Positions 1-37,415 of a stretch of 37,415 nucleotides of DNA are shown here, in pieces. The first letter of the stretch is position 1, and the number at the start of each line of letters is the position of its first letter. The notes below the pieces were generated by a model. That model made no database searches, had not been told where the DNA came from, and was given only the letters and a program-made list of their open reading frames with translations. The DNA comes from a virus (Duplodnaviria; Caudoviricetes). Made by a program: the position numbers and the translations under genes. The stretch lies in IMG/VR virus record IMGVR_UViG_3300012952_000044, positions 1 to 37,415 of that record; one strand, 5' to 3'.

Positions 1-3000
1 ACTGTATCAAACAATACAGTTAATCTTGGTGCTAGTCCATCTGATGATTCTCGTGTTTTTGCTGTAGGACATCAAAATTTAAATTCTTTGACATTTAGTG
101 GATCAGCTGGTACACAATTTACAATGAACTATACACCTAGTTCTAATTGTAAGTTACTCGTATTCTTTACATCTGTATTTGAAACACATTTAGTTCCTGC
201 TTCAAATTATAGTGTTAGTGGAAATGTGATTACATTTAGTGAAACTGTAAATCCTGCTGATATATTTGGTTGGTATCTTGATGAAGATACTACATGTGCT
301 ATTGTAAATACTGCTACATGGAATGATAATCAAATTCAAGGTATTTTAGGTTGTACAACTAAGAGATTTAATCATCATATAGAATCAAATGCTTCTAAAA
401 CTCCTGATGCATTATATGAGTTAAGAGCAAGAAATATTAGTGGTACTGTGTATGGTACTGGAACAAACTCAGTAAGAGGTTTTGATACTAGATTTACATA
501 TACATCTCCTTCACATTCATCTAGTTTTGTTGAAGTCTTAGAACCAATTACATTTAATGGAAGTACTAAGACATTTACATTAAAGAGAAATGGTGTTAAT
601 TATAGTCCTACGAATGGAGAAGAAAGTTTAGTCGTTTATCTGGATAATGCTGTTCTCGATCATGATAAGTATACGATTGTAGGTCAACAAATAATATTTA
701 CAGATGCTTATGCATCTACTGTTAAATGCACTTTAATTGATTATGTAAGTAGTTACTTAAGCAATACAGATGATGGTAGAGGTGCTATTCTTGATAGATT
801 AGGTCAAGATCAGACTGGTACTAGAGTACAATGGAATTTAGCGGATAAAGGTGTTCCTCAGTATGTTGCTAATCTTACTGACATATTTGTAATTGAAAAT
901 AACCTATTATTAGAACCAAGTACATCAAATTATTCAATAACTGGTAATTTAATTACTTTTGTAGATCCTCCATTAACTACTGATAATATTAAGATACCAT
1001 TCTTTAATAGACAACTTGTTCCAACAAGTACTAATAACGTTGTTTTAGATAAGTTTAGATGTATTAACGGTGAGAGAGTTTATTTCCCAATTACATCAAA
1101 TGGAATTTTAATTGCACCTGCATTAGAAAAACACTTCTTTGTTATTAGAAATGGTGTTATGCAACGCCCTGGCACAGATTATACTGTTTCTGCTTCAAAT
1201 AAAGCTATCACATTTAGTACTGCACCAGCTATTGGTGAAATTATGTTCTCATACTATTCTTATGATGGTGTGAACCAGAATATAATGTTAGATGATCTTA
1301 CTGGATTTAATGGTTCTACTGCTACATTTAACTTGACACATAGTAGCGGTACTGCATTTACACCACCAGATGTTGATGATCTAATGGTTGTTAGAAATGG
1401 TGTTGTACAGAACCCAACTCAAGATTGGACTGTAAGTGGTAGTCAAATTACATTTACAACTGCACCTGCTAATTCAGAACAACTTTGGATACTTTATACT
1501 CATGGTTCTCAGGAATTAACTATTGCTAGTCAAAGTGCCGTAAATTCCAATAGTTGGAAAATAACTATGTCTGCATCGCCAGGTAGTAGTGCAGCAGATT
1601 ATAGAAGATTATTAGTTCATGTTGATGGAGCTCCAAGATTCTTTGATAGATCAGACTTTACTGTTAGTGGTAATGATATTATATTAGACCATACTGGATC
1701 GCCTGCACCTACTAACGTCTTTGTAGTTAAGATTCCATCTATAACTCAAGTAGACGAATTTGACGACTGCCCAGATGGTACTAGGAAGAGATTTAAGTTG
1801 TTTACAGGAAATTCAAATCTTGCAAGTCCAACTGCATTAAACCTTGTTCCATCAGAAGTTGCAACTGATGCTGATATATTAGTTTCTATTAATGGTATTG
1901 TACAAGATCCTGGCACTGATTATTCACTTACTACTAATAGAGGATTTATAGATTTTGTTACTGCACCAGCAGCAACAGATAAGATCTTTATGGTTAAGAT
2001 GAGTAATAACTTACATAGATCTTTAACTGCTTCTGGATCTAATTACACTTTAAGTACAGGACAGTCTGCTGCATCTGGCGAAAGAGATAATATTGTGGTA
2101 TTCTCTAATAATACTTGGAAGTTTGCAGAATTAGGTGATTTCACATGGGTTAATGATACTACTATTACATTAGCGACTGCACATACTACAGGAAAACTAT
2201 TTGCTATCAAATTTACTAGTATCTTCAAGTTATTAGATCAATTGAATCAGACATTTACTAATACTGGTAAGGTGTTTAATTTATATGATGGTAGAAAGAG
2301 ATTTACACCAACTACTGCAACTTATACTCCTGCTAATGGTAATTTAGTATTAACTATTCCAAATCATGGTCTTTTACAAAATGCTGATGTAAGAATTGAA
2401 CCAAACTCATTGAAGTTTAAGTGTAATATGGATAGTGGATATGCTATTAAGTCTTATCCAAGAACTACTGATCCTAAGTATAATACTAATATTAATATTG
2501 ATGCAGTAACTACAGATACTATTACTCTTAACGTTGGTACATCGCCATTAGTAAATTACACTCCTGGCAATAATACAACTTATGATCCTACAACTGGAAA
2601 TTTAGTTTTACATATTGGTACTACTGGTGCTAATGCACTTAGTGTTGGAGAGTCTATTAAGTTGGCTGATAGTGCTGTAACATTTACTTGTGGTGCTGAT
2701 TATAATCAATCTAATCATTCATATCCTAGAACTACTATAGATATTAAGACACCAGAAGCTGGTACTACATATAACCCAACAACAGGTATTGTAACTATAA
2801 AAATTACTAATCATGGATTTAACGATGGTGATCTAATTAAATTAAATGATGGTGCTCTTAAATTTACTTGTCTACAAGGTTCTGGTCAATACGTTTATCC
2901 TAGACCAACTGATAGAATTGGTGGTGGTAAGTGGGTTCCTATTTCTAATTTAACAACAGATACATTTGATATCCAAGTTTTAGATTCTGCACCTTCTACC

Positions 3001-4656
3001 AATACTACTGCACATACATTTGTTAGTGCTGTTCAAAGTTCTTTAAGTAGAAAACGTGATAGATCTTATGATGCTCCTGTTACTATAACGGCAAAGGATG
3101 CAGCAGCTGGAACAATTACTGTAAATGTTGGTAAATCATCTGATACAACAACACATACATTTGTTGCTAATAGTGGTGTTGCGAACTCTGTAATTACTGG
3201 TGGTAATTATACACATACATTTGTATCTGCTAATCCTAGATGTATATTATCTGCTGGAGATCAAAAAATATTTACTCCTGTAGGAACAGTTGATAATGAT
3301 AATGTTCCAGATGAAACAAGTCTATTAGTTGTTAAAAATGGTAAAATATTAGATCCAAAGGTAGACTTTACTTTAAGTGGAGATAATAAGACACAAATTA
3401 CCCTTACAGATGATCCTGCTACTAATGATGTTATTTCAGTGAGATCCGTAGGTTCATTTGATAAATTGGATACTATTACCAACCAGAGTAATATTACTGA
3501 ACTTGTTATAAACAAGTCTTCTGCGTCTTATTATCCAAATGCTCATATAGAAAGACCAAGGAATTGGGAGAATCAGTATTTGGTTATTAAGGATGGTAAT
3601 CCTTTAAGTCCATTATATGATTATTATGTAACTGATAATAAAATGTACTTTACTTCAGCACAGACATTTACAAAACTGGTTATCTTAGATTTTCGTGGTA
3701 CTGCTGATGATGTTAAGGTATTGAGTAGAGGATATGAAGTTGTAATTGGAGATGAGTTACAAATTACTGGAGAAGTGGATCCATCAACAAAAGAACCAGT
3801 AGCAAGAACTATTAGTGGAATTGTATCACCTACAGTTTTGACTACTCAATCCTTTACTGGTGATAATATCTTTACTTGGGGAACTGGTAACTTAGGATCT
3901 ACTACTATTTCTAATGGTGTTATATCTGCACTAACAACAACTTCTGGTAGTGTAGGATTTAAGAATCCTGTTGTATTAAGAACAGAAGGTACAGGACTTG
4001 GTGCAAAAGCAACTGCAACTGTAAACATCATATCTGGTGGTGAAATAGTTAATAGTTCAATAGATATTCAGTATCCTGGCTATAATGTTTATAATACTCA
4101 TAAAGTATTCCCAACTGTATATGCATCCACATATAAGAAACAGGCGGTTAGTAAGACTGAAGTAAGGAAGGGAACTAAACTTACATCAAATATTAATAAT
4201 TCTGTAGAGACTATTGCTCTTAAGAATACAGCTAATATGACTTCTAATACACCAACATTCACCATTACTGGTACTCATAGTGGTAGTAATGCGTCATTTA
4301 GACCATTTATTTCAGGTGGTGAAGTTAAAAAGGTAGAAATTATTAGCGGTGGAACTGGTTATGATGATCGTGATATAAATATTACGCTTACTGGTGGTGG
4401 GGGAACTGGATGTGTTCTCGAACCAGTGTTAAATAGTTCAGGTACAGTTACTTCAATAACTGTTAAAAATCCTGGCGTTGGTTATGATACGTTTAGAGTT
4501 ATACTCCGCAAAGAGGTTTCTAACGTAGTTAATGCTGAAATTGTCGAATACACAACGGTCACTAGTACTGGAATAGAAGGATGTACAAGAGCAGTTCTTG
4601 GTACAGCTCAATCTTATTCCGCAAATGACCTCGTATATTTTGATAATTATATCTAA
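1..4656 (+). CDS. Large repeat-rich baseplate/virion structural protein (gp7-like baseplate wedge initiator), 5'-truncated
   Basis: Frame is open from position 1, so the TTG at 88 is probably not the true start. Roughly a dozen ~75-aa repeats (FNGSTxTF..LxVxxNGVxQxPxxDYTVSGxxITFxxAP). Lies immediately upstream of gp8, the gp7 position in cyanomyoviruses. Confidence 0.65.
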   Translation, partial: TVSNNTVNLGASPSDDSRVFAVGHQNLNSLTFSGSAGTQFTMNYTPSSNCKLLVFFTSVFETHLVPASNYSVSGNVITFSETVNPADIFGWYLDEDTTCAIVNTATWNDNQIQGILGCTTKRFNHHIESNASKTPDALYELRARNISGTVYGTGTNSVRGFDTRFTYTSPSHSSSFVEVLEPITFNGSTKTFTLKRNGVNYSPTNGEESLVVYLDNAVLDHDKYTIVGQQIIFTDAYASTVKCTLIDYVSSYLSNTDDGRGAILDRLGQDQTGTRVQWNLADKGVPQYVANLTDIFVIENNLLLEPSTSNYSITGNLITFVDPPLTTDNIKIPFFNRQLVPTSTNNVVLDKFRCINGERVYFPITSNGILIAPALEKHFFVIRNGVMQRPGTDYTVSASNKAITFSTAPAIGEIMFSYYSYDGVNQNIMLDDLTGFNGSTATFNLTHSSGTAFTPPDVDDLMVVRNGVVQNPTQDWTVSGSQITFTTAPANSEQLWILYTHGSQELTIASQSAVNSNSWKITMSASPGSSAADYRRLLVHVDGAPRFFDRSDFTVSGNDIILDHTGSPAPTNVFVVKIPSITQVDEFDDCPDGTRKRFKLFTGNSNLASPTALNLVPSEVATDADILVSINGIVQDPGTDYSLTTNRGFIDFVTAPAATDKIFMVKMSNNLHRSLTASGSNYTLSTGQSAASGERDNIVVFSNNTWKFAELGDFTWVNDTTITLATAHTTGKLFAIKFTSIFKLLDQLNQTFTNTGKVFNLYDGRKRFTPTTATYTPANGNLVLTIPNHGLLQNADVRIEPNSLKFKCNMDSGYAIKSYPRTTDPKYNTNINIDAVTTDTITLNVGTSPLVNYTPGNNTTYDPTTGNLVLHIGTTGANALSVGESIKLADSAVTFTCGADYNQSNHSYPRTTIDIKTPEAGTTYNPTTGIVTIKITNHGFNDGDLIKLNDGALKFTCLQGSGQYVYPRPTDRIGGGKWVPISNLTTDTFDIQVLDSAPSTNTTAHTFVSAVQSSLSRKRDRSYDAPVTITAKDAAAGTITVNVGKSSDTTTHTFVANSGVANSVITGGNYTHTFVSANPRCILSAGDQKIFTPVGTVDNDNVPDETSLLVVKNGKILDPKVDFTLSGDNKTQITLTDDPATNDVISVRSVGSFDKLDTITNQSNITELVINKSSASYYPNAHIERPRNWENQYLVIKDGNPLSPLYDYYVTDNKMYFTSAQTFTKLVILDFRGTADDVKVLSRGYEVVIGDELQITGEVDPSTKEPVARTISGIVSPTVLTTQSFTGDNIFTWGTGNLGSTTISNGVISALTTTSGSVGFKNPVVLRTEGTGLGAKATATVNIISGGEIVNSSIDIQYPGYNVYNTHKVFPTVYASTYKKQAVSKTEVRKGTKLTSNINNSVETIALKNTANMTSNTPTFTITGTHSGSNASFRPFISGGEVKKVEIISGGTGYDDRDINITLTGGGGTGCVLEPVLNSSGTVTSITVKNPGVGYDTFRVILRKEVSNVVNAEIVEYTTVTSTGIEGCTRAVLGTAQSYSANDLVYFDNYI
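2299..3258 (+). repeat. Three nested copies of a TY(D/N/T)PxxG..FxC..YPR..HTFV domain inside the gp7-like protein
   Basis: YPR motifs at ~2455, ~2722 and ~2896; HTFV motifs with near-identical DNA cacatacatttgt at ~3011, ~3152 and ~3212. Confidence 0.75.
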
Positions 4657-4662
4657 TAAATA
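4656..4662 (+). promoter_or_regulatory. T4-type late promoter core ATAAATA upstream of gp8
   Basis: Matches the gp55-dependent TATAAATA-like core; overlaps the upstream stop codon. Confidence 0.55.
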
Positions 4663-4691
4663 AAAGTAACAATTCAGAACTGTAAAGAATA

Positions 4692-6275
4692 ATGCCTTCA
4701 CTTGTCACAGATAATTTTAGAGTCTTTGCGGCTGAGCAGTTTATCGAGTCTCTAGCAGAACCATTCTCAGATGCTTCAAATACTCAAGAGGCAGATAGTT
4801 CTGCAAAAGCACAGGCTTATAGAAGTAAAATTTACCTTTTTACGGGTAGACCTCAAAGTTGGACACTGGAAAGATACAGTGGTGTATCTGGAGTTAGTGA
4901 ACTTGCTCCTCCAACTCCAAATGATTCATTCGATGATATGAATGAAATATATGATGATATGATTGCTATGAAGAGAGTATCATCTACGGATGTTTCTAAA
5001 GTAATTAAGAGAAACACTTGGAAGACTGGACTTAAGTATGATATGTTTAAGAATAATTATACACCAAGTAATCTTTCTGTTAATGGTCAATCAAAGTTAT
5101 ATGATGCACAATTTTATGTAATTAATAGTAATTACCAAGTTTATAAGTGTATATTTAATGGAGAAAGTCCAACTAATCCAACAGGAAAAGTTTCTACTGT
5201 AGAACCAACAGGAACTACTACATCAATATTTGATACTTCTGATGGATATCGTTGGTTGTATCTATACACTATTAATATTTCTGATTATATTAAATTTGTT
5301 TCTAGTGATTTTATTCCCGTAAAAACTGATAATGCAGTAAAAACTGCATCAGCAGCAAGAGATGGGTCTATTGAACAATTATTAGTAACTGCTTCTGGTA
5401 GTAGTATCAGTCCAGGCACTTACTATTGTCCTATATTAGGTGATAATGATACCAGTTCAAACTCCAATAAAGCTATAGCAACTATTGTAGTTCCTAACAC
5501 TGGTTCTAATTCTGGTAAAATTGATTCTGCTACATTACATCAAATTGGTAAGGGTTATACTCGTGCCACAGTTTTATTAACTGCTGGTTATGCAACTGCC
5601 GCTGCTGCGATTGCAAGAAGTGGATCTACAACCTCTTTGAGTGGAACTGTACAGGCTATTATTTCACCTCCAGGCGGTCATGGTGCAGATACATCACTAG
5701 AACTTGGTGGTTATCGTGTAATGATCAATAAGAGTTTAGAATTCCTAGATGGAAGTGGAGACATCCCTGTAGACTCTCAATTTAGAAGATATGGATTAAT
5801 ATCTGATCCTGTTGTTGCAGGTGCTACAACAGATCTTATAGATCCTACAGTAACCGCTTGTAAAGCTATTAAATTTGCGTCATCTACTACAGATACATAT
5901 ACTGCTGGAGAAATTATTACTCAAGCTACTACTGGTGCTAAAGGTAGAGTTATTCATTGGGATACTGTTAATAAAGTTCTTAGATATTATCAGAATGAAT
6001 ACATTGATCAGACTCAAGCTGGTGCTAATACATATCAAGAAGTTGCCTTTACTGGTGCAAATGCAATTACTGGTGCTACTAGTAATACTGTGTTAACACC
6101 AGATGTGTCTCACGGTACTGCATCATCTGGTATTGCAGCTAGTTTATGGACTAATGGATATTCAGGTTCTGAAGTTAAGAAAAACAGTGGGACTGTTATC
6201 TATACAGAGAACAGGAAAGCAGTAAACAGGTCTAACGACCAAATTGAAGACATCAAATTAGTTGTCGAATTTTAG
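4692..6275 (+). CDS. g8: Baseplate wedge subunit gp8
   Basis: Motifs FYVINSNYQVYKCIFNG, EPTG..DGYRWLYLYTI, ISPPGGHG..ELGG and C-terminal YTENRKAVNRSNDQIEDIKLVVEF, typical of cyanophage gp8. Confidence 0.9.
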   Translation: MPSLVTDNFRVFAAEQFIESLAEPFSDASNTQEADSSAKAQAYRSKIYLFTGRPQSWTLERYSGVSGVSELAPPTPNDSFDDMNEIYDDMIAMKRVSSTDVSKVIKRNTWKTGLKYDMFKNNYTPSNLSVNGQSKLYDAQFYVINSNYQVYKCIFNGESPTNPTGKVSTVEPTGTTTSIFDTSDGYRWLYLYTINISDYIKFVSSDFIPVKTDNAVKTASAARDGSIEQLLVTASGSSISPGTYYCPILGDNDTSSNSNKAIATIVVPNTGSNSGKIDSATLHQIGKGYTRATVLLTAGYATAAAAIARSGSTTSLSGTVQAIISPPGGHGADTSLELGGYRVMINKSLEFLDGSGDIPVDSQFRRYGLISDPVVAGATTDLIDPTVTACKAIKFASSTTDTYTAGEIITQATTGAKGRVIHWDTVNKVLRYYQNEYIDQTQAGANTYQEVAFTGANAITGATSNTVLTPDVSHGTASSGIAASLWTNGYSGSEVKKNSGTVIYTENRKAVNRSNDQIEDIKLVVEF

Positions 6276-6276
6276 G

Positions 6277-6283
6277 ATAAATA
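6277..6283 (+). promoter_or_regulatory. Late promoter core ATAAATA upstream of the VrlC-like gene
   Basis: Motif lies in the short intergenic gap. Confidence 0.55.
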
Positions 6284-6306
6284 CTCAAAAGAAATACCTT
6301 ATTTAA

Positions 6307-9300
6307 ATGGAAGTTACTAATCTAAAGATCTCTCCGTATTTCGATGATTTTGATCGGTCAAAAAATTACCAAAAGGTTCTTTTTAAGCCAGGATATTCTG
6401 TCCAGACACGAGAAATAAATACACTCCAATCAATTTTACAAAATCAAATTGATCGGTTTGGGTCGCATGTTTTTAAGGATGGATCTGTTGTAATTCCAGG
6501 CAACTTAGATTATAGTGTTAGTTATAAAGCAGTTTTAATACAACCTCTAATTAATGGTATTTCAGTAGAGACATTAAGAGCTGCTACATTTAAAGCAGGT
6601 ACAGAACTAACTGGTCTAACATCTGGTGTTAAAGCAGAAGTTGTTAATTCTATAAGTGCTACAACTTCAGAGAAAGATACGATTACTTTATATGTAAAAT
6701 ATACTTCAGGTGGTAATATATCAAATGATGTACAGGCTAATGAATTTCAGAATAATGAGGTACTTCAAAATTCAGCTGGTACATCTGTAGCTGTTACTGC
6801 TGTACAGAATGCTTCAGCATATACAGGATCCTCTGCTACAATTAATGCAGGTGTATATTTCATTAGAGGATATTTTGTAGAAGTAGCTACACAAACAATT
6901 ATTCTAGATCAGTATAATAATAAACCATCATATAAAGTTGGTCTTCAAGTAAAAGAAAGTATTGCAACTACATCTGATGATGATACTTTATATGATAATG
7001 CATTAGGTACTACAAACTATGCATCTCCAGGCGCTGATAGATTAAAGATTACTGCAACATTAACAAAACAGAATTTATTGTTGACCGATGATGCTAATTT
7101 TATTGAATTATTGAGATTAGAAAATGGTGAACCAACTGTACAAGTAAATAATTCTCTTTATAGTGAGTTAGAAAAGAATTTAGCAAGAAGAACATATGAT
7201 GAATCTGGACATTATACTATTAAACCATTTGGTGTTAAGGTAAAAGAAGCATTAGATGATGGTGTTAATGGAGGTATATTCCTACCAAACTCAAAACTAG
7301 AAGATGGTAGAACTATTGTAGATGGTAAACCTTCATCTTCAGACCCAACAAATTCTATTAATGGTAATGATTATTATGCTGTTGAGTTATCTGAAGGTAA
7401 AGCATATGTAAAAGGATTTGAGGTAGTATCAAATAGGAAACAATATAAAATTGTAGAAAAACCAAGAAAAACTATTACTAAAGAAAATAAAGGATTCTAT
7501 GCAAATATTGGATCATATTTTAAATTAGATCTTAGTAGTGATTCTAATACTAAAGGTGCTGCAGGTTTTGGTGCTGAATTAGATTTAAAGGCTGTAACTG
7601 GTAGTTCAATGGGAACTGCAAAATGTCTTGGTTTAATAGGTGCAGGCGATAGGTTATATGTAGCTGATGTTAACATACATTCACAGTTAACACTTAATCA
7701 AACTGCTGCAACAACTGGAATAGTTGCAGGTGATTATATTACTGGACAAACTAGTGGTGCTACAGCATATGTTAAGTCTGTATCTGGAAGTACTCTTACA
7801 ATATATCAGGTTAGTGGTACATTTAGTACAGGTGAAACTTTATCACAAAGTAGATATACTGCTGCTACTTTACCAACTATCACAAATCATGCATTAAATA
7901 AATTAGAAGATATTAGAACAATAACATCAGGTACTGGATCTAATTCATTCTTGGGTACAATTTTACAAGATACAGTTAATTTAACTGGTGCTTCATTCAA
8001 GATTGCTGGTACTGCTTTTACTGGTATAGGATCTAATTTTAGGAACGAATTATCTTCTTTATCTAAAATAAGAATTGGTAGTGTTGATCATGAAGTTGGT
8101 GCTCTTGGCGACAGTGGTAATAGTAATACTGCATTAACATTAGATGCTTCTGGTGTTAATGGAACTTATTATGATGTTAAAAAATATGCTACTAAATTAT
8201 ATACATCTGATACAGGTTTAACATCTAAAGTATATACAAATCCAATTGCAACAACAAAAGATTATAGTCATTATACATCAGGATATATTACTAATCAAAC
8301 TGCTGATGGTTCTGGAGAATATACTCTTACTGTTGGTGCTGGAGAAATAATAGATAAAGATAGTGTTTTTGTACTAGGAACATCTGTTAGAGATTCTAGT
8401 ATTACAGTAACTAATCCAGATGCAAACTTTCCAAATATAGTTAAGATATCTAATTTAACAAATAATGCTATTATTAATGTATATTGGAAATCTAGAATAC
8501 CATCATCTAAGATTAAGACAAAAGAGAAAGAATCATATAATATATTCTTAGTATCTAAGGATAAGGATGCTACTAATCATGCATATGGAACTAGATATGT
8601 TGATAAAGATATATCTTTAGGAAAACAAGACGTATTTAAAATTCATGCTATTCATGAAGCATTGGATGATTCTCAATCAACAGAGACTTTATTTGATCGT
8701 TTAAAATTAAATTCATCTCTTAATATAAATGTAGGTGATCTTATTATATCTGGTTTAATTAGAGCTAGAGTGATAAGTAAAGGTTCTGATAATTTAGTAT
8801 ATGTTAAGTACATTAGTACAACAAAATTCCAGAGTGGTACTAATCTTGCACTTTCAGTTAATGTACCAACTAATTCAGTTGCTGCTGGTATATTCATCAG
8901 AGAATCATTGTATGGTAATTTTAAAGATATAACTGATGATTTTATATTATTAAAAAATGATACTGATAATTTTTATAGACCATCTAAAATAGTAAGAAAA
9001 TCATTTGCTGCAACTCCAAGTAAAAAATTGGTAGTAGTATATGATTACTTTAATCATTCAAATTTAAATAATGATTTCTATTCTAAGGAATCATATGATT
9101 TAACTTATGGAGATACACCATTAGCATCTAATTATAATTCATATGCAGATATAATAGATTTTAGATATGTTATAGAAAATGGTACAAGTGGTTCTGGTAC
9201 TATTGGAGCTCCTTATAGTGATAATAATACAAATCCATTATTAATGGATGGTAAAAGTATAGCAACTTCTCAAAAATTTGTTTGGCCAACTGAATTAATA

Positions 9301-27522: not shown

Positions 27523-27528
27523 TAAATA
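27522..27528 (+). promoter_or_regulatory. Late promoter core ATAAATA upstream of gp22
   Basis: Intergenic motif. Confidence 0.6.
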
Positions 27529-27566
27529 TTATTAGAAAATAACCATTTTTTCACAAGGGGAATCCA

Positions 27567-28601
27567 ATGTCGAATGTATCTGAAACAAATATTGAAACCG
27601 TAGAAGAGGGCAGTAATCCTGTAACTAAGAATGCTAGCCCAGGTGATCCCATGCCAAAGATTGATAATACTGTTCCAGGCCAAACTGGATCCGCAGAAGA
27701 CCTTGGTGGGCCCATCACAAAACCAGCTCCTAATTCCGAACCATCGGTAGGTGCTAAAGCTTCCGCAAAGGCTAAGAAGACAGCCACTAAAGTAAATGCA
27801 ACTGGTGGAACACCAGATCCAATGCCTACTCTAGACGGTTCTGCTCCTGGCCAGAAGAACGAGGAAGTAGAGAAAAAAGAATTGAGTATAGACGTATCTG
27901 ATGACGTTAATGCTCTATTAAAAGGAGAAGAATTCTCCGAGGAGTTCAAGTTTAAAGCAACAACTATCTTCGAAGCAGCCGTTAAGGCGAAGGTTGTTGA
28001 AGAACTTGAAAAACTAGAAAAAGTTTACGAAGAAAAACTTCAGGCAAAACTTGCCGAAGTTACCGAATCAATGGAAACACGTGTAGATTCTCATCTTGAG
28101 TACACTGCTGAACAGTGGATCAAGGAAAATCAACTCGCCGTTGACAATGGTCTACGTAATGAATTGACAGAAGAGTTCATCACAGGTTTGAAGGATCTCT
28201 TTGAAACACATTATGTCGATATCCCAGAAGATAAGTATGATGTTCTCAGCGATATGTCTGAGAAATTAAATGAAATGGAGACAAAACTTAACGAGCAAAT
28301 CGAAAGTAATGTTGAGCTCAATAAGGCAATCGGAACCTATACTAAAAATGGAATCATTGGAGAAATTTCCGAAGGTCTTGCTCAAACACAAAAAGAAAAG
28401 CTTGCTTCTTTAGCAGAAGGTGTTGAGTTTGTTAGTGAAGAGTCTTATCGGGAAAAGGTCGTAACGATCAAGGAAAATTATTTCCCATCAACTAAAGCGT
28501 CTTCATCTGAAGATCTTGTTGAAAAACAGCAAGTAATTGCTGAAGATCTAGAGGGCCCTATGGCATCTTATGCCGCAGCGCTTTCTAAGTACTCTAACTA
28601 A
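27567..28601 (+). CDS. g22: Prohead core scaffold protein gp22
   Basis: FSEEFKFKATTIFEAAV, LFETHYVDIPEDKYDV, IKENYF; acidic coiled coil. Confidence 0.93.
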   Translation: MSNVSETNIETVEEGSNPVTKNASPGDPMPKIDNTVPGQTGSAEDLGGPITKPAPNSEPSVGAKASAKAKKTATKVNATGGTPDPMPTLDGSAPGQKNEEVEKKELSIDVSDDVNALLKGEEFSEEFKFKATTIFEAAVKAKVVEELEKLEKVYEEKLQAKLAEVTESMETRVDSHLEYTAEQWIKENQLAVDNGLRNELTEEFITGLKDLFETHYVDIPEDKYDVLSDMSEKLNEMETKLNEQIESNVELNKAIGTYTKNGIIGEISEGLAQTQKEKLASLAEGVEFVSEESYREKVVTIKENYFPSTKASSSEDLVEKQQVIAEDLEGPMASYAAALSKYSN

Positions 28602-28628
28602 CAAATAATTAAAGAGGTAAAATTCTAA

Positions 28629-29996: not shown

Positions 29997-30015
29997 TTTA
30001 ATATCACATATTTTC

Positions 30016-30043
30016 AAAGAGACCCTACGGGGTCTCTTTTTTT
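30016..30043 (+). terminator. Rho-independent terminator after gp23
   Basis: Stem AAAGAGACCC / GGGTCTCTTT with a C-UACG-G tetraloop and a U-tract. Confidence 0.9.
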
Positions 30044-30063
30044 ATGAAGAGAATATTAAACAG

Positions 30064-30126
30064 TTAAATAGTTTTACCAGACCTAAATATTATTGATTCT
30101 ACCTTTAGGTGCAAGGGTAGTAAATA
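30064..30126 (+). promoter_or_regulatory. Cluster of three TAAATA late-promoter-like cores plus a hairpin
   Basis: TTAAATA at 30064, CTAAATA at 30083, GTAAATA at 30120; stem CTACCTTT (30099-30106) / AAGGGTAG (30113-30120). Confidence 0.5.
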
Positions 30127-30130
30127 CAAC

Positions 30131-30310
30131 ATGGACTGGGAACTAGAAAATGCGAACTATAAACTGCAAGATATGATTACCGTATACGAAACAGAAATAG
30201 CAGAACTACAGAAAGAAAAAAAAGAATTAAAACAAGAAGTTCTTTTTTTAAAAGCACAACTAGAGTATAAAACTTTAGGTAACCATGAAACTGAACATGA
30301 CAAGGATTGA
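30131..30310 (+). CDS. 59-aa coiled-coil hypothetical protein (not in the ORF track)
   Basis: Manually translated as MDWELENANYKLQDMITVYETEIAELQKEKKELKQEVLFLKAQLEYKTLGNHETEHDKD. Confidence 0.65.
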   Translation: MDWELENANYKLQDMITVYETEIAELQKEKKELKQEVLFLKAQLEYKTLGNHETEHDKD

Positions 30311-30312
30311 TT

Positions 30313-31005
30313 ATGACTACACAATTTTCCAAAGAAATTAAAGAAGGGACTAAGAAGTCTCATTCTGCAGCAGAGAATACTAAATTTGTTGCTTCATTTC
30401 TTAAAGGAGTGTTAGACCCAGAAGAGTATCGTAAATTGATTACTAACTTTTGGTATGTCTATGAGACAATGGAACTGAGGCTTCAAGAGTCTAATGATCC
30501 ATTTGTAAAAGAATTAAAACAATGGAACGTATTATTATTCCGTACAGCTTTTATACAAAGAGATCTTAGATATTATTATGGGCCTTTTTGGAGAGAAAAA
30601 CAGATACCAACAGAAGCATGTAATAAATATTGTCATAGAATCAATGAGATAGCAGAGAAAGATCCTTATCTATTGATTGCACATCACTACACAAGATACA
30701 TTGGTGATCTATCAGGTGGTCAAATTCTTAAAGGTATTGCTAAGAAAGCATTAAATCCACCAGAAGGGGAAGGATTACATTTCTATGACTTCCCTCGTAT
30801 AGAGGATGCTAAAGCATTTAAAACAGAATATAGATCAACACTTGATAATTTAGATTTAACAAGAGAACAAAAAGACGCATTAGTAGAAGAGGCAAATTAT
30901 GCCTTTAAATTAAATATGGATATGTTTAATGAGATGAAAGGAAGTGCGACAAAATCATTATTAGTTCTATTAAGAAATACATTGTTTCCATTTTTAACTA
31001 AATAA
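30313..31005 (+). CDS. ho1: Ferredoxin-dependent heme oxygenase (auxiliary metabolic gene)
   Basis: EGTKKSHSAAEN (proximal heme His), AHHYTRYIGDLSGGQILK signature, EEANYAFKLNMDMF. ATG at 30313 preferred over TTG at 30307. Confidence 0.95.
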   Translation: MTTQFSKEIKEGTKKSHSAAENTKFVASFLKGVLDPEEYRKLITNFWYVYETMELRLQESNDPFVKELKQWNVLLFRTAFIQRDLRYYYGPFWREKQIPTEACNKYCHRINEIAEKDPYLLIAHHYTRYIGDLSGGQILKGIAKKALNPPEGEGLHFYDFPRIEDAKAFKTEYRSTLDNLDLTREQKDALVEEANYAFKLNMDMFNEMKGSATKSLLVLLRNTLFPFLTK

Positions 31006-31013
31006 TATTAGCA

Positions 31014-31268
31014 ATGGAGAATATTATGCACGGAAATTTGGAACCAGAGGAAAGTGTCTGGAGTACTGAACCCAATACTTATACTGTTCATCCCGAAATG
31101 GCTGGTGTAGATCTAGATTCAGAAGAATTATTATCAGTTAATTTTGAAACAAAGAGAGATGTAGATGTAGTATTTACAGTTGATCCATCCTTTCAAGAAA
31201 AGATTAATGGATATTCTTTTGATGAAGAAGATGATGATGACGATGGAGACATCGTAGTAAGAATATAA
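31014..31268 (+). CDS. Acidic hypothetical protein
   Basis: MHGNLEPEE motif and DDDDDGDIVVRI end; CTAAATA core at 30998 upstream. Confidence 0.65.
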   Translation: MENIMHGNLEPEESVWSTEPNTYTVHPEMAGVDLDSEELLSVNFETKRDVDVVFTVDPSFQEKINGYSFDEEDDDDDGDIVVRI

Positions 31269-31271
31269 ATA
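31264..31271 (+). promoter_or_regulatory. Perfect T4 late promoter TATAAATA upstream of gp3
   Basis: Exact consensus. Confidence 0.7.
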
Positions 31272-31283
31272 ATCAGAAAGGTT

Positions 31284-32354
31284 ATGGCGTATTTTGCAAA
31301 TACTGATAACGCTCCGTCTAAATTTTTATCTGGTGTTGGCTTTCAACTTAGTTTAAATAAACTACCAGGCGTATCGTATTATTGTCAATCAGTTACTGTC
31401 CCATCGTTAAATCTTGCGGTTGCAGAACAACCCACGATGTATAGGCGCTTGCCAGAACCAGGCGATGAGGTAAACTATGATGACCTTTCAGTCCGATTCC
31501 TAGTTGATGAGGATATGAAAAATTATATATCAATTCATAATTGGATGAGATATTTGGGATATCCAGAATCAGAGAAAGATTGGACAACTTTTGCAGACGG
31601 TGAAAAATATAGTGAAAAACAATATAGTGATGGAGCATTATTCATATTAGATTCTAATTTTCAAAAGAAGTTTGAGATATATTTTAAAGATCTTTTTCCA
31701 GTAAGTTTAGGTGGACTTAATTTAGATGCAACTTATACTGATACAGAATACTTTGCAATAGATGCTACATTTAAATATTCATTGTTTGATATTAAGGAGG
31801 TAGGAGCGACCTCTTTTTTTAAACAGTCCTCGCTAGTAGCACCAACTGTTACGTTAAATAGCGGGGTATCAACAGTAGATGGTGAGGATGTATTAACTTT
31901 AACTTACACATCTACTAATGCAGAAACATTAGTAATTGGTAATGGAGTCGGATCAGTTTCTGTTACTGGTAATGGAGTTACATTAAAAGTTGCTGATATC
32001 CGACACTTATCATATAACGGAACTATATCATATACAATTACAGCAACATCAGCTGATAATTTAACAGCAGAGGCAACTACTACTGCTACATTACCTGGCG
32101 TTGCTCAGACAAGTACTAACAGAACTTGTATTGCTGTACTTGATGAAAATCTAGGAAGTCAGACATATCTTGGGATGGCAACTAAATGGAAAACATTTAG
32201 AGATACCTATCCAGATAGAATGTTTTGGTTATTACAACCAAATTCTAGTGGGGAAGGAAGTAATAATGGAATGTATAGTGCTAGTAAAATAAGTGACTTA
32301 CATCTCCCACCACAATTTTTAGAAGAAACAGATCCAACTAAGGTAGATTTATGA
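31284..32354 (+). CDS. g3: Tail completion/tube terminator gp3 with a ~180-aa C-terminal extension
   Basis: FLSGVGFQLSLNKLPGVSYYCQSVTVP, PGDEVNYDDLSVRFLVDEDMKNY, FKDLFPVSL..DATFKY; extra Ig-like and RTCIAVLDE segments follow. Confidence 0.85.
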   Translation: MAYFANTDNAPSKFLSGVGFQLSLNKLPGVSYYCQSVTVPSLNLAVAEQPTMYRRLPEPGDEVNYDDLSVRFLVDEDMKNYISIHNWMRYLGYPESEKDWTTFADGEKYSEKQYSDGALFILDSNFQKKFEIYFKDLFPVSLGGLNLDATYTDTEYFAIDATFKYSLFDIKEVGATSFFKQSSLVAPTVTLNSGVSTVDGEDVLTLTYTSTNAETLVIGNGVGSVSVTGNGVTLKVADIRHLSYNGTISYTITATSADNLTAEATTTATLPGVAQTSTNRTCIAVLDENLGSQTYLGMATKWKTFRDTYPDRMFWLLQPNSSGEGSNNGMYSASKISDLHLPPQFLEETDPTKVDL

Positions 32355-33904
32355 GTTTTTCAGCAGCACAATTTACACCCAATAATACATCTCCGCTTGG
32401 AAGTACTAATTTTTTAGGTACAGGAACGTATGATATTTTACCTAATAAAGAACATTCTTCAATGCCAGAAAGTTTACCTAATACAGATGGCAATATAGCA
32501 AAAATACCAGTTAATATCAAGGAAGTACTTGATCAACTTCCAGCAGCTATAGCTGAAATGTATAACAATGATGTTAATGCATTAGTTAAATCGAGTCAGT
32601 TTACAGGTACAGCAGTAGATCCTAGATTATATGGAAATTCTGCACACCTTAGTGCATATTGGACTGCTGCACAAACTTTAGCATCTTGGATATTACATCA
32701 AATACCAGGCCCTCAAGGAGCAGGATCTAGTGCTTCAAATCCACTTGATGTTCCATTTACATCTACACAAAAGACTAATTTAATAGGTGCTTTGAGTTCG
32801 TATCCAGATCCTGAAACCCTTAAACTATTTTACGATACTAGGTTTAGTCAAACTGCTAATGGTGGCCCTTGGGATCCAGCAACTGCTAATACATTTTTTA
32901 ATCTTGGTTATGGGAATAAGGCTTTTGAATGGGATACATCCACAGGAAACTTAACTTTAAAAGATAACTATGTTTTTTCAGGTTTAGATGATTTTGGTGT
33001 ATCATTGGATTTTGGAACAAAGGGCCCATTAGGTTTTACTGTTGGATTGGTTAGAGCTATAGCTGTTTCGGTTGTAGTAGGAGTTCTTACAGCTACTCCT
33101 ATAGTAATAGCTAGAATGATTTTAAAGAGAATAATGGCTCAAATGGGAATGGATATTGAGGATAGTGATTATCCATATAATATCCATAGAGGTCTTCCCT
33201 TCAATAATACTATTGGTGATGTTGCGATAATGCATATTAAAACAACATGGACACCAGCAGAAATTTTTGCTGCAAATCCTGAATTGTTCTGGCATGCTTG
33301 GAAAGAAGGTTATATTCCAACTTCTGCTTTAGAAGGAATAATGGCAAATTATCTGTCACCATTATCTGTAGGTACAGCATCTAGTCCATTTCTTCAACCA
33401 GATTATGCTGCTTCTGATGGCCCAATTGCTTCAAATCTAAGTAATATGACTCTTGGTGGTGGAGGTAATTATCCACAACCATTTACAAGTTTCTCTCAGA
33501 GAATAGTTAATGCTAGTAATAGTCTTGGAGCTTATGCAAAATTTGGATCTTATGCTGGAAGAATTGTAACAATAACAGATAGTCCGTATAGTGGACAATG
33601 GGGGTTTAGGATGCAGCCATGGGATACTTTTGATGATGGTAGTATTATAATTTCTGGTGGACATCAATTAACTAAGAATGAATGGTTTAACACTGCTCTT
33701 AAAGCTAAGGTTGCTGTTCGATTTTTACATTTACCAACTAGACCTTTAGTTTTAGTTGATGTAGCAATTAAAGGATTTTCTCCAACTACTACACTTAGTC
33801 ATTTCTATAATCCAAACTATGGTCTAGCAGCTGCATCACTTGGTTCAACACAATTACCACAATTAATTGCAGCTGTAGGAGCTGCTACACTACTAATACT
33901 ATAA
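32351..33904 (+). CDS. Hypothetical 517-aa protein with two hydrophobic segments
   Basis: Long ORF with an ATGA overlap to gp3; no family recognised. Confidence 0.75.
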   Translation: MSFSAAQFTPNNTSPLGSTNFLGTGTYDILPNKEHSSMPESLPNTDGNIAKIPVNIKEVLDQLPAAIAEMYNNDVNALVKSSQFTGTAVDPRLYGNSAHLSAYWTAAQTLASWILHQIPGPQGAGSSASNPLDVPFTSTQKTNLIGALSSYPDPETLKLFYDTRFSQTANGGPWDPATANTFFNLGYGNKAFEWDTSTGNLTLKDNYVFSGLDDFGVSLDFGTKGPLGFTVGLVRAIAVSVVVGVLTATPIVIARMILKRIMAQMGMDIEDSDYPYNIHRGLPFNNTIGDVAIMHIKTTWTPAEIFAANPELFWHAWKEGYIPTSALEGIMANYLSPLSVGTASSPFLQPDYAASDGPIASNLSNMTLGGGGNYPQPFTSFSQRIVNASNSLGAYAKFGSYAGRIVTITDSPYSGQWGFRMQPWDTFDDGSIIISGGHQLTKNEWFNTALKAKVAVRFLHLPTRPLVLVDVAIKGFSPTTTLSHFYNPNYGLAAASLGSTQLPQLIAAVGAATLLIL

Positions 33905-33905
33905 T

Positions 33906-35720
33906 ATGCCAAAACCCACTAATGCTAATAAAGATCACTTTAAAACTGTACTAAGAAAGTATAGGAAGAAATTTGACAGCAATATACAAACTGTTAAGTA
34001 TTCTGATTTGAAGGATATGTTTGATCATGTATCAACAAGTAGTGCATTTACTAGTGTAATAACTGACAATACAGATGTTCATGTTGTATTATTTGATGGT
34101 GAACAAAGCAATCCACCAATAGATATTACTAGTCTTATGGCGGTAGGGAAATTTATATATTTCCCTGCATTTGTGGGTGATTATATAAATTTAAAGATTG
34201 GAGGCTCCACTGAATCTTTAAAATTTTCTGCTGATAATTACTTTCAAATGAAACAGGGAACTAGTTATAATAGTTCTGCATATGGATTAAATAGTAATTG
34301 GTATTTTTCAACTAGAAGTACTACTGGAAAAGGATCTATAAGACATCATTGTAGATCATCAGCATTGGGTGGTCTTTTAATTCAAGTCACTCAATCTCAA
34401 ACTGTAGAAATAACAACACCAGCTAGTGATGTTACTATAAATGAGAATGGTACTGCAACTTTTGGAGTTACCACAACAGGATATGGTAATGGAAATAGTA
34501 TACAGTATAAGATAGAGGGGGATGGATTAAATTCAATAGATCCAGTAAATGATTTTACCACTAATCTAGGTGGTATTCAAAATATGACTGTGAATAATAA
34601 TGCTGCTTCTGTAACTGTAACATTAAAAAATGATTATACAGTTAATGAAGGATTAGAACATTTTTATTTTCATATAGTAGATCCTACCAATACTAATGTA
34701 GTATTAGGAAGTAGTCCAAAAATTAGTGTTACAGATACATCTTCAGCATCTTATGCATTAGCTTTATCTCCTACGCCAGTAAATGAAGGAACTAGTTCTA
34801 CGTGGACTGTTAATACAACAGGTGTTCCAAATGGAGCTCCAGTATTTTATTATACGGTAGAAGGTACAGCAGCTACTAACGCAGATATAGAAAGTTTAAA
34901 CGGTTCTTTCCAAATCAGTAATAATACTGGTAGTTTTAGTATTCCTATAAGACAAGATTTTGTTGTAGATAATGCAGAAACCCTTATAGTTAAACTTAGA
35001 CAAAATTCTATAACTGGTATAGTATTAGGAGTTTGGAATACTGTTACTGTTAATAATGTTGCTTGGTCATTATCTATTACTCCAAATAAAACAACTGTAA
35101 ATGAATCTAGTGCATCTACTTCTGAATCTGTTACATTTGCTATTGCTACAAGTGGAGTTCCAGATGGAACAAAGGTAAGACTTTACCCACAATATGTAAC
35201 TGGAAGTGCTACAATATTTTCTGATGTTTCTCTAAACTCTACAAACCCAGAATTTAATGCTTTTACATATAAAGAAGTTACTATTAATAGTAATGCAGCT
35301 ACTGCAACTTTATATATGGGTAGAGATGGTTTGATTGAAGGATCTGAAGTTTTTAATGTAGCAGTTAAAGATTTTCTAGGAACTACAACTATTGCAACAA
35401 GTCCTAATATAACAATTACAGATACGTCATTTATTGGTTCGCAAAAAACTGATAAGACATTTGGGCCTCTTGCTGTTAATAGGGATGGTGGTAATGCAAA
35501 TAATGTTTCAGATTGGTATACGATATGTAACCTAGATAGTTTACCAAATGGATCTAAGATTGCTGTCTATATAGATACTTCTGGAAGTATGACACAAGGT
35601 ACTATTCAGGCATCTCATGACTTATTAATGCAAAAATTAAATGCTAGAAACATGGATGTTATAGTCGTAACTAACCCCAGTGAAGACTGGATTACACCTT
35701 TCCAACAAATATTGAATTAA
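33906..35720 (+). CDS. Putative structural protein with three Calx-beta/Ig-like repeats and a C-terminal MIDAS-like (DTSGSM) segment
   Basis: Repeats with (V/I)NE..F/W-x-V..TxG and EG-x-E-x-F..I-x-(V/I)TDTS; IAVYIDTSGSM near the end. Confidence 0.7.
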   Translation: MPKPTNANKDHFKTVLRKYRKKFDSNIQTVKYSDLKDMFDHVSTSSAFTSVITDNTDVHVVLFDGEQSNPPIDITSLMAVGKFIYFPAFVGDYINLKIGGSTESLKFSADNYFQMKQGTSYNSSAYGLNSNWYFSTRSTTGKGSIRHHCRSSALGGLLIQVTQSQTVEITTPASDVTINENGTATFGVTTTGYGNGNSIQYKIEGDGLNSIDPVNDFTTNLGGIQNMTVNNNAASVTVTLKNDYTVNEGLEHFYFHIVDPTNTNVVLGSSPKISVTDTSSASYALALSPTPVNEGTSSTWTVNTTGVPNGAPVFYYTVEGTAATNADIESLNGSFQISNNTGSFSIPIRQDFVVDNAETLIVKLRQNSITGIVLGVWNTVTVNNVAWSLSITPNKTTVNESSASTSESVTFAIATSGVPDGTKVRLYPQYVTGSATIFSDVSLNSTNPEFNAFTYKEVTINSNAATATLYMGRDGLIEGSEVFNVAVKDFLGTTTIATSPNITITDTSFIGSQKTDKTFGPLAVNRDGGNANNVSDWYTICNLDSLPNGSKIAVYIDTSGSMTQGTIQASHDLLMQKLNARNMDVIVVTNPSEDWITPFQQILN

Positions 35721-35727: not shown

Positions 35728-36159
35728 ATGATTACACTTGATGATGTGCAACATGAGTGGACTATTGATTCTAAAATTGACCCTGAGTTATTAGATGAAG
35801 AGTCTATAAAAATACCACAATTACATAGCAAATATCTTAAGTATCTTTCTGATGTAAAACTACTTAAGATTAAAAAAGAAATGGAGTATAAGGTTCTACT
35901 TCGAGAGAAGTTTGAATATTATACTGGTAAAGCAGATGAAGAAGTTTATAAAGAAAAACCTTTTGATCTAAAGATTCTAAAACAGGATCTATCACTATAC
36001 ATGGAATCTGATACGGATATTCAAGCTTTGCTTGCCCGTATAAATTACTATGAAGAGATCATGTTTTTTCTTGACAAAGTTCTCCATTGTTTAAACAACA
36101 GAGGATTCCAAATTAAGAATAGCATAGATTGGCAAAAATTTATGCAAGGTAGCATCTAA
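35728..36159 (+). CDS. uvsY: Recombination mediator UvsY
   Basis: WTIDSKID..ESIKIPQLHSKYL, EYYTGKA, NRGFQIKNSIDWQKF; directly before uvsW. Confidence 0.92.
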   Translation: MITLDDVQHEWTIDSKIDPELLDEESIKIPQLHSKYLKYLSDVKLLKIKKEMEYKVLLREKFEYYTGKADEEVYKEKPFDLKILKQDLSLYMESDTDIQALLARINYYEEIMFFLDKVLHCLNNRGFQIKNSIDWQKFMQGSI

Positions 36160-37415
36160 TGTCTGATGTCACTATTCAGAAGAAGAATGAGGTATATCTA
36201 AAAGTTGATTGTGAACCACATATTAAATATGAACTTTCATCATATTTTACTTTTGAGGTTCCAGGCGCTAAATTTATGCCGCAATATAAAAGACGACTCT
36301 GGGATGGAACTATTAAATTGTTTAGTCCAGCAGAAGGAAAGATATATTGTGGACTATATGATTACTTAACTGAATGGTTGGCGGAGAATGGGTATTCCTA
36401 TGAGGATAAAAGAAATGATGAGTATGGATTACCTTGTGAGAGGAATGAATTTATTACAGCACCAGGCGTAGCGGATTTCGTAAAGTCATTAAATATTCCA
36501 TTAAAGGTAAGAGACTATCAATATAATGCAATATACCAAGCTTTAAAATATAATAGAAGATTATTATTATCGCCTACTGCATCTGGTAAGTCATTAATGA
36601 TCTATGCTATTACTAGATATTTTGTTAATAAAGAAGATAGAGTTTTAATAGTAGTACCTACAACTTCATTAGTAGAACAGTTATGTGGAGATTTTAATAG
36701 TTATGGATGGTCTTCTGATGAATATTGTCATAAGATATATTCTGGTAGAGAGAAGTATACATCCAAACCAGTAACTGTCACAACATGGCAATCAATATAT
36801 AAGTTACCTAAAAAATACTTTGAAGAATTTGGATGTGTTATAGGAGATGAAGCTCATTTGTTTAAAGCAAAATCTCTTATTAATATAATGACCAAGTTGC
36901 ATAACTGCAAACATAGAATCGGTTTTACTGGAACACTGGATGGATCTAATACAAATCAATTAGTACTAGAAGGATTGTTTGGTTCTGTTAATAAGGTTAT
37001 TAAAACTAAGGAGTTAATTGATAAAGGATTCTTATCTAAATTAAATATCACAGTACTTCTATTACAACATGATAGTAGGGTATTTGAATCGTATCAAGAT
37101 GAGATGGATTATATTTGTACGATGGATAAAAGAAATAAATTTATTCGTAACTTAGCATTAAATCAAGAAGGAAATACATTAATACTCTTTGCCTACGTGG
37201 AGAAACACGGTGAGGTTCTTTTTGAAATGATAAATAGTAATGTATCGTCAGATCGCAAAGTCTTCTTTGTTCATGGAGGAGTTGATACTGAAGATAGAGA
37301 ACAAGTAAGATTAATCACGGAGCAAGAAAACAATGCTATCATCATTGCGTCCTATGGTACTTTTAGTACTGGTATCAACATTAAGCGTCTTCACAATATC
37401 GTGTTCGCAAGCCCC
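36159..37415 (+). CDS. uvsW: UvsW SF2 helicase, 3'-truncated (not in the ORF track)
   Basis: Manually translated: FTFEVPGAKFMPQYK..WDG, RDYQ, SPTASGKS (Walker A), VPTTSLVEQ, GDEAH, GFTGTLDG, ASYGTFSTGINIKRLHNIVFASP; runs off the window end. Confidence 0.95.
   Translation, partial: MSDVTIQKKNEVYLKVDCEPHIKYELSSYFTFEVPGAKFMPQYKRRLWDGTIKLFSPAEGKIYCGLYDYLTEWLAENGYSYEDKRNDEYGLPCERNEFITAPGVADFVKSLNIPLKVRDYQYNAIYQALKYNRRLLLSPTASGKSLMIYAITRYFVNKEDRVLIVVPTTSLVEQLCGDFNSYGWSSDEYCHKIYSGREKYTSKPVTVTTWQSIYKLPKKYFEEFGCVIGDEAHLFKAKSLINIMTKLHNCKHRIGFTGTLDGSNTNQLVLEGLFGSVNKVIKTKELIDKGFLSKLNITVLLLQHDSRVFESYQDEMDYICTMDKRNKFIRNLALNQEGNTLILFAYVEKHGEVLFEMINSNVSSDRKVFFVHGGVDTEDREQVRLITEQENNAIIIASYGTFSTGINIKRLHNIVFASP

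Follow-up and report, generated by a model that had tools for sequence, protein, structure and literature searches.

Phage genomes are known to avoid restriction sites, that is, short palindromes, and two restriction enzymes with sites of the CCWGG or CCNGG kind are SexAI (ACCWGGT) and PfoI (TCCNGGA). Phage C5-methyltransferases (C5-MTs) that are paired with TET are described as methylating mainly GpC[C/T] (PMC8256090), and RGCY, CCNGG, GGWCC, and GGHCC marks, with writers that are mostly unmatched, are described on marine virus (Myoviridae-like) genomes (PMC8919816). One preprint judges it unlikely that GpC marks give broad protection from restriction (bioRxiv 10.1101/2023.12.21.572611), and for the methylase of phage Melnitz, such protection is put forward as a suggestion (PMC9004378). 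Here, we describe a 37,415-base stretch of viral DNA (IMG/VR record IMGVR_UViG_3300012952_000044; referred to in full as the window here), a piece of a T4-like phage with 34% GC that contains genes from baseplate to capsid, heme oxygenase, uvsY, and a partial uvsW-like gene. In this window, the restriction word CCWGG is kept almost exclusively as GCCWGG, which is probably explained by ordinary CCWGG restriction together with an overlapping GCY mark on the phage DNA.

CCWGG sites in the window

Counts are given here as observed/expected. The expectation is a mean over shuffles of synonymous codons in which every protein and the pooled codon usage are preserved; both strands are included, and the letter codes are H for not G, D for not C, W for A or T, S for G or C, and Y for C or T. 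A site is G-flanked if a G lies immediately 5' of its first C on one strand. A preliminary description of this DNA had reported that WCCWGGW is missing at its Pro-Gly codons, and this absence holds for the whole window: WCCWGGW occurs nowhere in the 37,415 bases, compared with 10.7 ± 3.2 expected from 100 dinucleotide shuffles and 28.0 ± 3.3 from 300 synonymous-codon shuffles. All of its sub-words are empty (ACCWGGT 0/7.5, TCCWGGA 0/6.0, and ACCWGGA with its complement TCCWGGT 0/14.5). As had been remarked, SexAI and PfoI cover the motif only in part. The truly excluded class is wider than the one described, however, with HCCWGGD at 1/32.5 versus GCCWGG at 38/7.8. In Klebsiella, WCCWGGW is described as a flank class of Dcm sites (PMC9684165).

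The sites concerned are the following.

1168..36466, no strand assigned: the 37 CCWGG sites by sequence count, every one an in-frame Pro-Gly of plus-strand genes
27637..27644, plus strand: the lone HCCWGGD exception, G-CCCAGGT, in the scaffold gene gp22, with GCC directly 5' of the site

Our count agrees with the earlier one of 37 Pro-Gly sites, all CCW-GGN and 30 of them with GGC. At 36 of the 37 sites, at least one strand reads GCCWGG, 30 times by means of GGC and 6 times through a G-ending codon before Pro; GGC is found at 39 of the 884 other glycines (Fisher p = 1e-30 for the comparison with 30 of 37). The seven sites with GGT or GGA do exist, with starts that we correct to 1579, 6388, 14208, 17266, 25942, 27639, and 29409, and the base preceding them is G in six and C in one, in line with the earlier statement of G or C. 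The idea that CCWGG itself is tolerated does not hold without qualification, given that there is no out-of-frame CCWGG in the window (5.0 expected). Pro-Gly necessarily contains CCNGG, and CCSGG contains CCGG; CCWGG can therefore not be removed without changing the protein, and its flanks alone are free. Since CCGG is absent from the window, a central W is not distinguishable there from a central N. The context of the gp22 exception recurs in four related loci (L162-L165) and, with a central T, in L170. The majority of the recoded sites are located in the structural gene cluster at 88..29996.

Other words in the window and its clade

Further words missed by the preliminary description are empty in the window: CCGG (0/16.6), GGWCC (0/15.4), CGCG (0/7.2), ATCGAT (0/8.0), TGCAGGA (0/7.8), GGTACC (0/4.9), and GTGCAC (0/3.2). 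Other words survive in particular contexts.

7559..30370, no strand assigned: CTGCAG, n = 7 (7559, 13182, 15439, 22145, 24002, 27317, 30365); all seven read GCTGCAG on one strand
25466..33622, no strand assigned: CCATGG, n = 2 (25466, 33617); both GCCATGG
22129..27974, no strand assigned: TTCGAA, n = 2 (22129, 27969), with 9.7 expected in all; GC directly after both (GCTTCGAA on the other strand)
13583..35467, no strand assigned: GGSCC, n = 17 (2.8 expected), versus no GGWCC (15.4 expected); every remaining GGNCC contains GCC

Thus, HCTGCAGD stands at 0/7.8 and GCTGCAG at 8/12.6, HCCATGGD at 0/2.7 and GCCATGG at 2/0.5, and GGCC at 21/12.8. Pooling the window clade (74 kb of nonoverlapping coding sequence, under half of the likely genome) gives HCCWGGD 1/45.1, HCTGCAGD 0/14.5 versus GCTGCAG 9/17.3, HCCATGGD 0/5.5, HCCGGD 0/23.0 with GCCGG 2/10.2, and TTCGAA at 3/1.1 where GC is adjacent and 0/15.4 elsewhere. 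Words with GCA or GCG stay empty in the pooled set (GTGCAC 0/7.1, CGCG 1/13.5). The contexts that allow rescue are GCC and GCT, with GCA and GCG mostly failing; because words with a G-C step followed by A or G are mostly unrescued, the rescued context is GCY.

Gene-internal depletion was also seen for AAAAAA (32/72.1) and GGAGG (14/36.9) in the window.

Distribution among relatives

We surveyed 354 IMG/VR loci that fell into 91 clusters, of which we set aside 19 where fewer than 4 sites were expected, leaving 72 dereplicated marine T4-like clusters. For all loci beyond the window, gene calls followed a simple longest-open-reading-frame rule and 6 to 200 shuffles were used, which makes the expectations approximate. 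Thirteen of the 72 clusters keep only G-flanked CCWGG (HCCWGGD 0/133 versus GCCWGG 161/42), a share that is not a population frequency, as the loci were gathered partly by queries from avoiders. Nine clusters, one of them borderline, purge both classes (1/57 and 4/31), and the other 50 show no CCWGG avoidance (627/650). CTGCAG provides an independent test of the 13 clusters, which were classed by CCWGG alone: HCTGCAGD is at 4/38 and GCTGCAG at 40/43, compared with 134/172 and 103/154 in the 50 nonavoiders. For GGCC outside GGSCC, the rescue-type clusters have 0.86 of the expected count versus 0.40 in the nonavoiders.

The rescue-type clusters include the isolates S-SSM7 and Melnitz, and the 5'-G rule is present in phages of cyanobacteria and of Methylophilales; the sister clade of the window is without it. 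On a portal tree (FastTree, 122 proteins, after exclusion of duplicate proteins, short alignments, and loci where fewer than 3.5 sites were expected), the 13 rescue-type tips occupy about seven places, namely, the window clade, L002, S-SSM7, Melnitz with L078, L061, G004 with L221, and L036, the last of which adjoins P-HM1, a phage with a different flank rule. Of 22 aligned orthologous Pro-Gly positions, 19 are HCCWGGD in the sister contig G003 and none has GGC there, and in the window none is HCCWGGD and 19 have GGC; at other conserved glycines, GGC is equally frequent in the two (24 and 26 of 515). Out-of-frame HCCWGGD is empty in both S-SSM7 (0/70.2) and Melnitz (0/21.6). A codon-pair effect does not account for the rule, which recurs in 13 of the 72 clusters and is missing from the sister clade of the window; the translation effect in phages generally that had been raised at the outset is at odds with G003 and the 50 nonavoiding clusters.

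Within the window clade, the nested locus L171 has a relaxed rule (8 sites versus about 13-14 expected). Its contig L460 (94% scaffold identity) has 7 HCCWGGD at the 16 Pro-Gly sites common with the window, compared with 1 in the window, which suggests that the rule was lost recently or that the tract is recombinant. Other flank rules were also observed. P-HM1 (L337-L345) is without CCCWGG and TCCWGGA, retains GGWCC only with an A in front, and encodes N4/N6 methyltransferases; P-TIM68 (L346-L355), which encodes N4/N6 methyltransferases too, favors ACCWGG. Viral loci near Mom-like genes (L535, L536, L541-L544, L558, L561, and L564) have purged CCWGG in every flank. Most of the related T4-like loci (L001-L080) lack CCGG, yet C5-MTs are found in few of the sampled host genomes.

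S-SSM7 and Melnitz

In the complete S-SSM7 genome, HCCWGGD is at 9/193.5 versus 200/70.3 for GCCWGG. The same holds for HCTGCAGD (0/46.2 versus GCTGCAG 35/44.4), HCTCGAGD (0/13.2 versus 6/6.5 when G-flanked), HCCATGGD (2/24.1 versus 18/11.1), and HCCTAGGD (3/12.4 versus 9/3.9), while the GCA words GCAATTG (0/38.5) and ATGCAT (0/57.5) are unrescued. All 18 leftovers overlap GGWCC (10 of 10 HCCWGGD, 3 of 3 HCCATGGD, 3 of 3 HCCTAGGD, and 2 of 2 TGCAGGA), and apart from such overlaps CCCWGGD is at 0/59. WCCWGGW occurs 7 times where 134.9 are expected, each time overlapping GGWCC (12.8 expected overlapping and 123.6 nonoverlapping). This second rescue is only partial, because 9 of the 19 GGWCCWGG sites still end in C.

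In complete Melnitz, the G rule covers CCWGG, CCGG, CTGCAG, GCGC, CTTAAG, and CCTGCA, with HCCWGGD at 0/64.3, HCCGGD at 0/53.1 versus GCCGG 15/25.9, HCTGCAGD at 0/37.6 versus GCTGCAG 14/22.1, and HCCTGCA at 2/90.7 versus 22/10.2 when G-flanked. Melnitz has a C5-MT gene followed by a TET/JBP gene. Eighty viral loci with a Melnitz-type C5-MT (76-100% identity), 43 of them with a TET match within the locus, together show HCCWGGD 3/209 and GCCWGG 158/97, HCCGGD 3/206 and GCCGG 45/88, and GGWCC 22/295 and GGSCC 237/85. The purge in Melnitz (L329-L336) is very broad, extending to GATC (22/386), CGWCG (1/82), AACGTT (0/50), ATCGAT (1/38), and TTCGAA (1/42).

An overlapping GCY mark as the proposed explanation

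We propose that host enzymes cutting unmodified CCWGG would have purged all contexts other than GCCWGG, and that the sites which the phage must keep for its Pro-Gly pairs would be protected by a predicted mark on the C of G-C-[C/T]. At these sites, the outer C would be modified on one strand, and cutting would be blocked at least partly. The writer would most likely be a phage C5-MT specific for GpC[C/T], to which TET oxidation and glycosylation may or may not be added. As cutters, we envisage picocyanobacterial systems with a patchy distribution, e.g., a SinI-family enzyme for GGWCC and, for CCWGG, an island with Dcm-like, Vsr, and MzaB-E genes. CCGG, CGCG, and ATCGAT, which are not dictated by any amino-acid pair, are gone, and Pro-Gly is coded as CCW-GGC or follows a G-ending codon, so that one strand reads GCCWGG. 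Because the 5'-G rescue applies to unrelated words, one overlapping mark is simpler than several enzymes with a common flank quirk. The limitation of the rescue to GCC and GCT matches the published GpC[C/T] specificity, with GCCGG, AGCT, and, for S-SSM7 only, GGSCC as exceptions. We speculate that a bulky glycosylated mark would explain the HCCWGGD exception in the window and the three TTCGAA sites directly beside GCY, four sites in total.

Several results weigh against this explanation. GCCGG is unrescued in the window (0/4.4) and in S-SSM7 (0/65.5), where GGSCC is also at 0/50.3 although it always contains GCC. AGCT, whose two strands would both carry the mark, is at 141/314.7 in the clade and at about half of expectation in avoiders and nonavoiders alike (0.55 and 0.47). 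Unforced G-flanked CCWGG is still underrepresented (11/26.7 in S-SSM7, 0/8.1 in Melnitz), so protection is at best partial. There is some GCA rescue in Melnitz (GCACGTG 4/13.3 versus 0/10.9), and the CTGCAG rescue by itself could arise from a GCWGC methylase. The 80 loci with a Melnitz-type C5-MT are relatives, not independent cases, and the clade of the Melnitz enzyme relative to published sequences (PMC8256090) is one that we infer. Cutting of CCWGG by the Mza island is, in turn, predicted from homology. Searches for a writer add to these points. The C5-MT family PF00145 matched 1 of 14 phage records, that of Melnitz, and gave no match in S-SSM7. It was also not found in 5 further contigs, one of them the 99%-complete relative G672, or in six contigs of the window clade. 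Among nine sequence sets, a profile built from 34 C5-MTs picked up the Melnitz enzyme only. The N4/N6-methyltransferase family PF01555 was found in 3 of 5 records, S-SSM7 and Melnitz not among them, and TET in 1 of 5 records, with none in S-SSM7 or G672. The counterresults on GCCGG, GGSCC, AGCT, unforced G-flanked CCWGG, and GCACGTG may reflect partial protection by a one-strand mark, enzymes that are insensitive to its position, or purges that predate the mark.

Adjacent C5-MT and TET genes were not found in the ∼74 kb of window-clade coding sequence (under half of the likely genome), nor was a methyltransferase found when walking the window clade from the baseplate genes to nrdB, and a TET search in phage isolates gave no cyanophage match. 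The C5-MTs of S-B43, S-CRM01, and L666 (38-39% identity to that of Melnitz) go without CCWGG avoidance. Mom was considered and rejected as the writer, its gene being present in 3 of 20 records, all avoiders, but the Mom loci L527 and L529 do not avoid CCWGG and others purge all of it; the SAS target given for Mu Mom (PMC13219725) would cover every CCAGG. A DruA-like gene, found in 8 of 20 records including the nonavoiders G003, Sf-FS3, S-SM2, and S-CREM1, did not track the rule, but may still make a mark; the Atlas yielded no function for it. In the window clade, such a gene (PF14236) is followed by a 447-amino-acid glycosyltransferase-like gene between gp44 and gp62 (L450:2307-4756), which makes a possible DNA-modification pair; both genes are present in the nonavoiding sister G003. 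The 7-deazaguanine (DpdA) route was likewise set aside after the TGT family matched 0 of 5 records and QueC gave weak matches only, a search that could miss a divergent DpdA. The weak QueC match in S-SSM7 falls on a gene annotated as NAD synthetase.

We further suggest, more tentatively than the mark itself, that marine T4-like phages pair a short GCY mark with genome-wide recoding and so disarm many unrelated restriction enzymes. The window lineage and S-SSM7 would use a writer family unrecognized as a DNA modifier, S-SSM7 also for a GGWCC mark, and the motifs would be readable from sequence.

Host-side candidates

PF00145 was found in 48 of 401 Cyanobiaceae genomes. Two of them, G159 and G226 (1.6-1.7 Mb, 32-33% GC), carry an integrase-flanked island with Vsr, a Dcm-like methyltransferase, and homologues of MzaB, C, D, and E. 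The best PDB matches of this methyltransferase are 3lx6 and 3me5, which we take to be enterobacterial Dcm with CCWGG specificity, at E values of about 1e-102 and far above M.HhaI. NCBIfam scores of the Dcm-like methyltransferase and of MzaB are below curated cutoffs, and the Dcm-like gene is found in 12 of 285 genomes of that genus. A further genome, G319, encodes a SinI-family enzyme, presumably specific for GGWCC, beside a C5-MT. ACCWGGA was depleted in 0 of 301 Cyanobiaceae genomes, a weak test given that mobile systems leave little trace, and EcoRII-C matched 0 of 401 genomes, where its control matched none either.

One integrase-flanked site in Prochlorococcus-sized genomes (L572, L573, L575, and L577) carries differing methyltransferase-bearing defense cassettes, namely, Vsr with the Dcm-like gene and MzaB-E at L572:8234-17229, a methyltransferase with PDC-M33-like genes, and a methyltransferase with a Z1/helicase-like gene.

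Alternative explanations

The overlap rescue could be real with the mark written by the host, placed on the opposite-strand G (RGC, deazaguanine-like), or derived from a cyanophage gene since lost, which we consider unlikely. GCY and RGC are indistinguishable by sequence, phage CAjan is described as carrying preQ0 at GA and GGC (PMC7544227), S-SSM7 shows two rescues without a recognizable methyltransferase, and L171 has a relaxed rule within the window clade. Set against this are the empty TGT family and weak QueC matches, the presence of a C5-MT in only 48 of 401 host-family genomes, so that none is core, and the completeness of the S-SSM7 purge over 233 kb, which suggests current selection.

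Slightly less probable still is that the phage carries no mark and that a new host nuclease recognizes a degenerate 7-base word, WCCWGGW or HCCWGGD, but does not see sites with a G flank. This would fit the emptiness of all four WCCWGGW sub-words, the writer gene not found in S-SSM7 or the clade contigs, the unrescued GCCGG in the window, and the slight depletion of unforced G-flanked sites, as expected of a weaker substrate. However, it requires separate enzymes for CTGCAG, CCATGG, CCTAGG, CTCGAG, CCGG, and CCTGCA, all blind to a 5' G in GCC and GCT contexts only, in phages of cyanobacteria and Methylophilales alike, and the GGWCC rescue in S-SSM7 requires a mark anyway; the undepleted ACCWGGA in 301 Cyanobiaceae genomes is a weak further point. 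This bears on the preliminary description, which had ascribed the pattern to host defense with a novel WCCWGGW specificity. The lineage-specific bias, its scatter over the tree, and the loss of other palindromes support a sequence-specific, methylation-sensitive defense, but there is no support for the novel specificity, as C flanks are excluded too and the 5'-G rescue extends to unrelated words.

We consider it very improbable that a nuclease of the phage itself, serving host DNA degradation or acting against competing phages, drives the purge. The sampled hosts are poor in restriction systems (PF00145 in 48 and EcoRII-C in 0 of 401), yet most of the related phage loci lack CCGG. On the other hand, the many palindromes that are purged differ in set from lineage to lineage, there are candidate host systems for both CCWGG and GGWCC, the EcoRII-C control itself matched no genome, and no nuclease gene tracking the pattern turned up, although no systematic search was made. 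A codon-pair or translation effect at Pro-Gly, which the in-frame position of all 37 window sites would fit, can be practically dismissed in view of the G003 comparison, the empty out-of-frame HCCWGGD, and the 50 of 72 clusters that do not avoid CCWGG.

Gene content of the window and likely host

The genes referred to above are located as follows.

88..29996, plus strand: T4-like structural cluster (baseplate, neck, terminase, sheath, tube, portal, protease, scaffold, and major capsid; PHROGs)
24934-26577, plus strand: portal (PHROGs)
27567-28601, plus strand: scaffold, gp22 (PHROGs)
28629-29996, plus strand: major capsid (PHROGs)
30313..31005, plus strand: heme oxygenase gene, a host marker; best isolate match cyanophage P-RSM6 (62%)
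36159..37415, plus strand: partial gene, putatively uvsW-like helicase from position and sequence; contains the last two Pro-Gly sites, 36261 and 36462

The nearest isolates are cyanomyoviruses, with portal identity of at most 64% among the matches listed (60 of 484 records), and overlapping contigs of the window clade carry two ferredoxin-dependent bilin reductases and a PurM-like gene. The host would be a picocyanobacterium, probably Prochlorococcus. Heme oxygenase proved of little use as a host finder in genome contigs, giving one Prochlorococcus locus and otherwise mostly actinobacteria; in S-SSM7, this gene is annotated in pieces (L302, 225033-225729). At 32351-35720, two long genes (517 and 604 amino acids) without a Pfam match lie between a tail-tube-like gene and uvsY. 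Both are absent in the relative L299, and one viral homologue was found for the first.

Comparison with known systems

A search by title and abstract opening, with subscription journals outside its reach, found no description of flank-dependent rescue of restriction sites in phage genomes. The GCY mark proposed here gives a testable answer to the role of GpC[C/T] marks, given the doubt that so narrow a mark protects a genome, and the recoding pattern suggests how such marks could give broad anti-restriction protection. Sorting surviving restriction words by their flank offers a way to infer a phage modification motif from sequence only. Two marks are predicted by it in the cultured cyanophage S-SSM7, which has no recognizable DNA methyltransferase, and a methylome could expose a new writer.

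The sites of SexAI and PfoI lie inside the empty class, but ACCWGGA/TCCWGGT and CCCWGGD are not covered by them. The Dcm/EcoRII-type CCWGG systems and MZA share the CCWGG core, and a Dcm-like methyltransferase, together with Vsr and homologues of MzaB-E, is found in Prochlorococcus-sized genomes with 32% GC, although the CCWGG specificity of the host island is predicted from homology. The marine Myoviridae-like RGCY, CCNGG, and GGWCC marks have contexts that resemble our two predicted marks, and their writers are mostly unmatched as well; they were called as N4-methylcytosine (m4C) from single-molecule real-time (SMRT) kinetics on other genomes, and the passages of that report dealing with them draw no link to recoding or to the lineages studied here (PMC8919816). 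The C5-MT/TET systems of GpC[C/T] specificity agree in the rescued contexts GCC and GCT, and Melnitz and its relatives have both the gene pair and the word rule, whereas the gene pair was not found in the window-clade contigs searched or in S-SSM7. With palindrome avoidance, our case shares complete, lineage-specific loss by means of synonymous codons and a depletion beyond codon and dinucleotide composition in all frames. It differs in that retention depends on the base in front, and forced sites, rather than disappearing, are directed into a single context.

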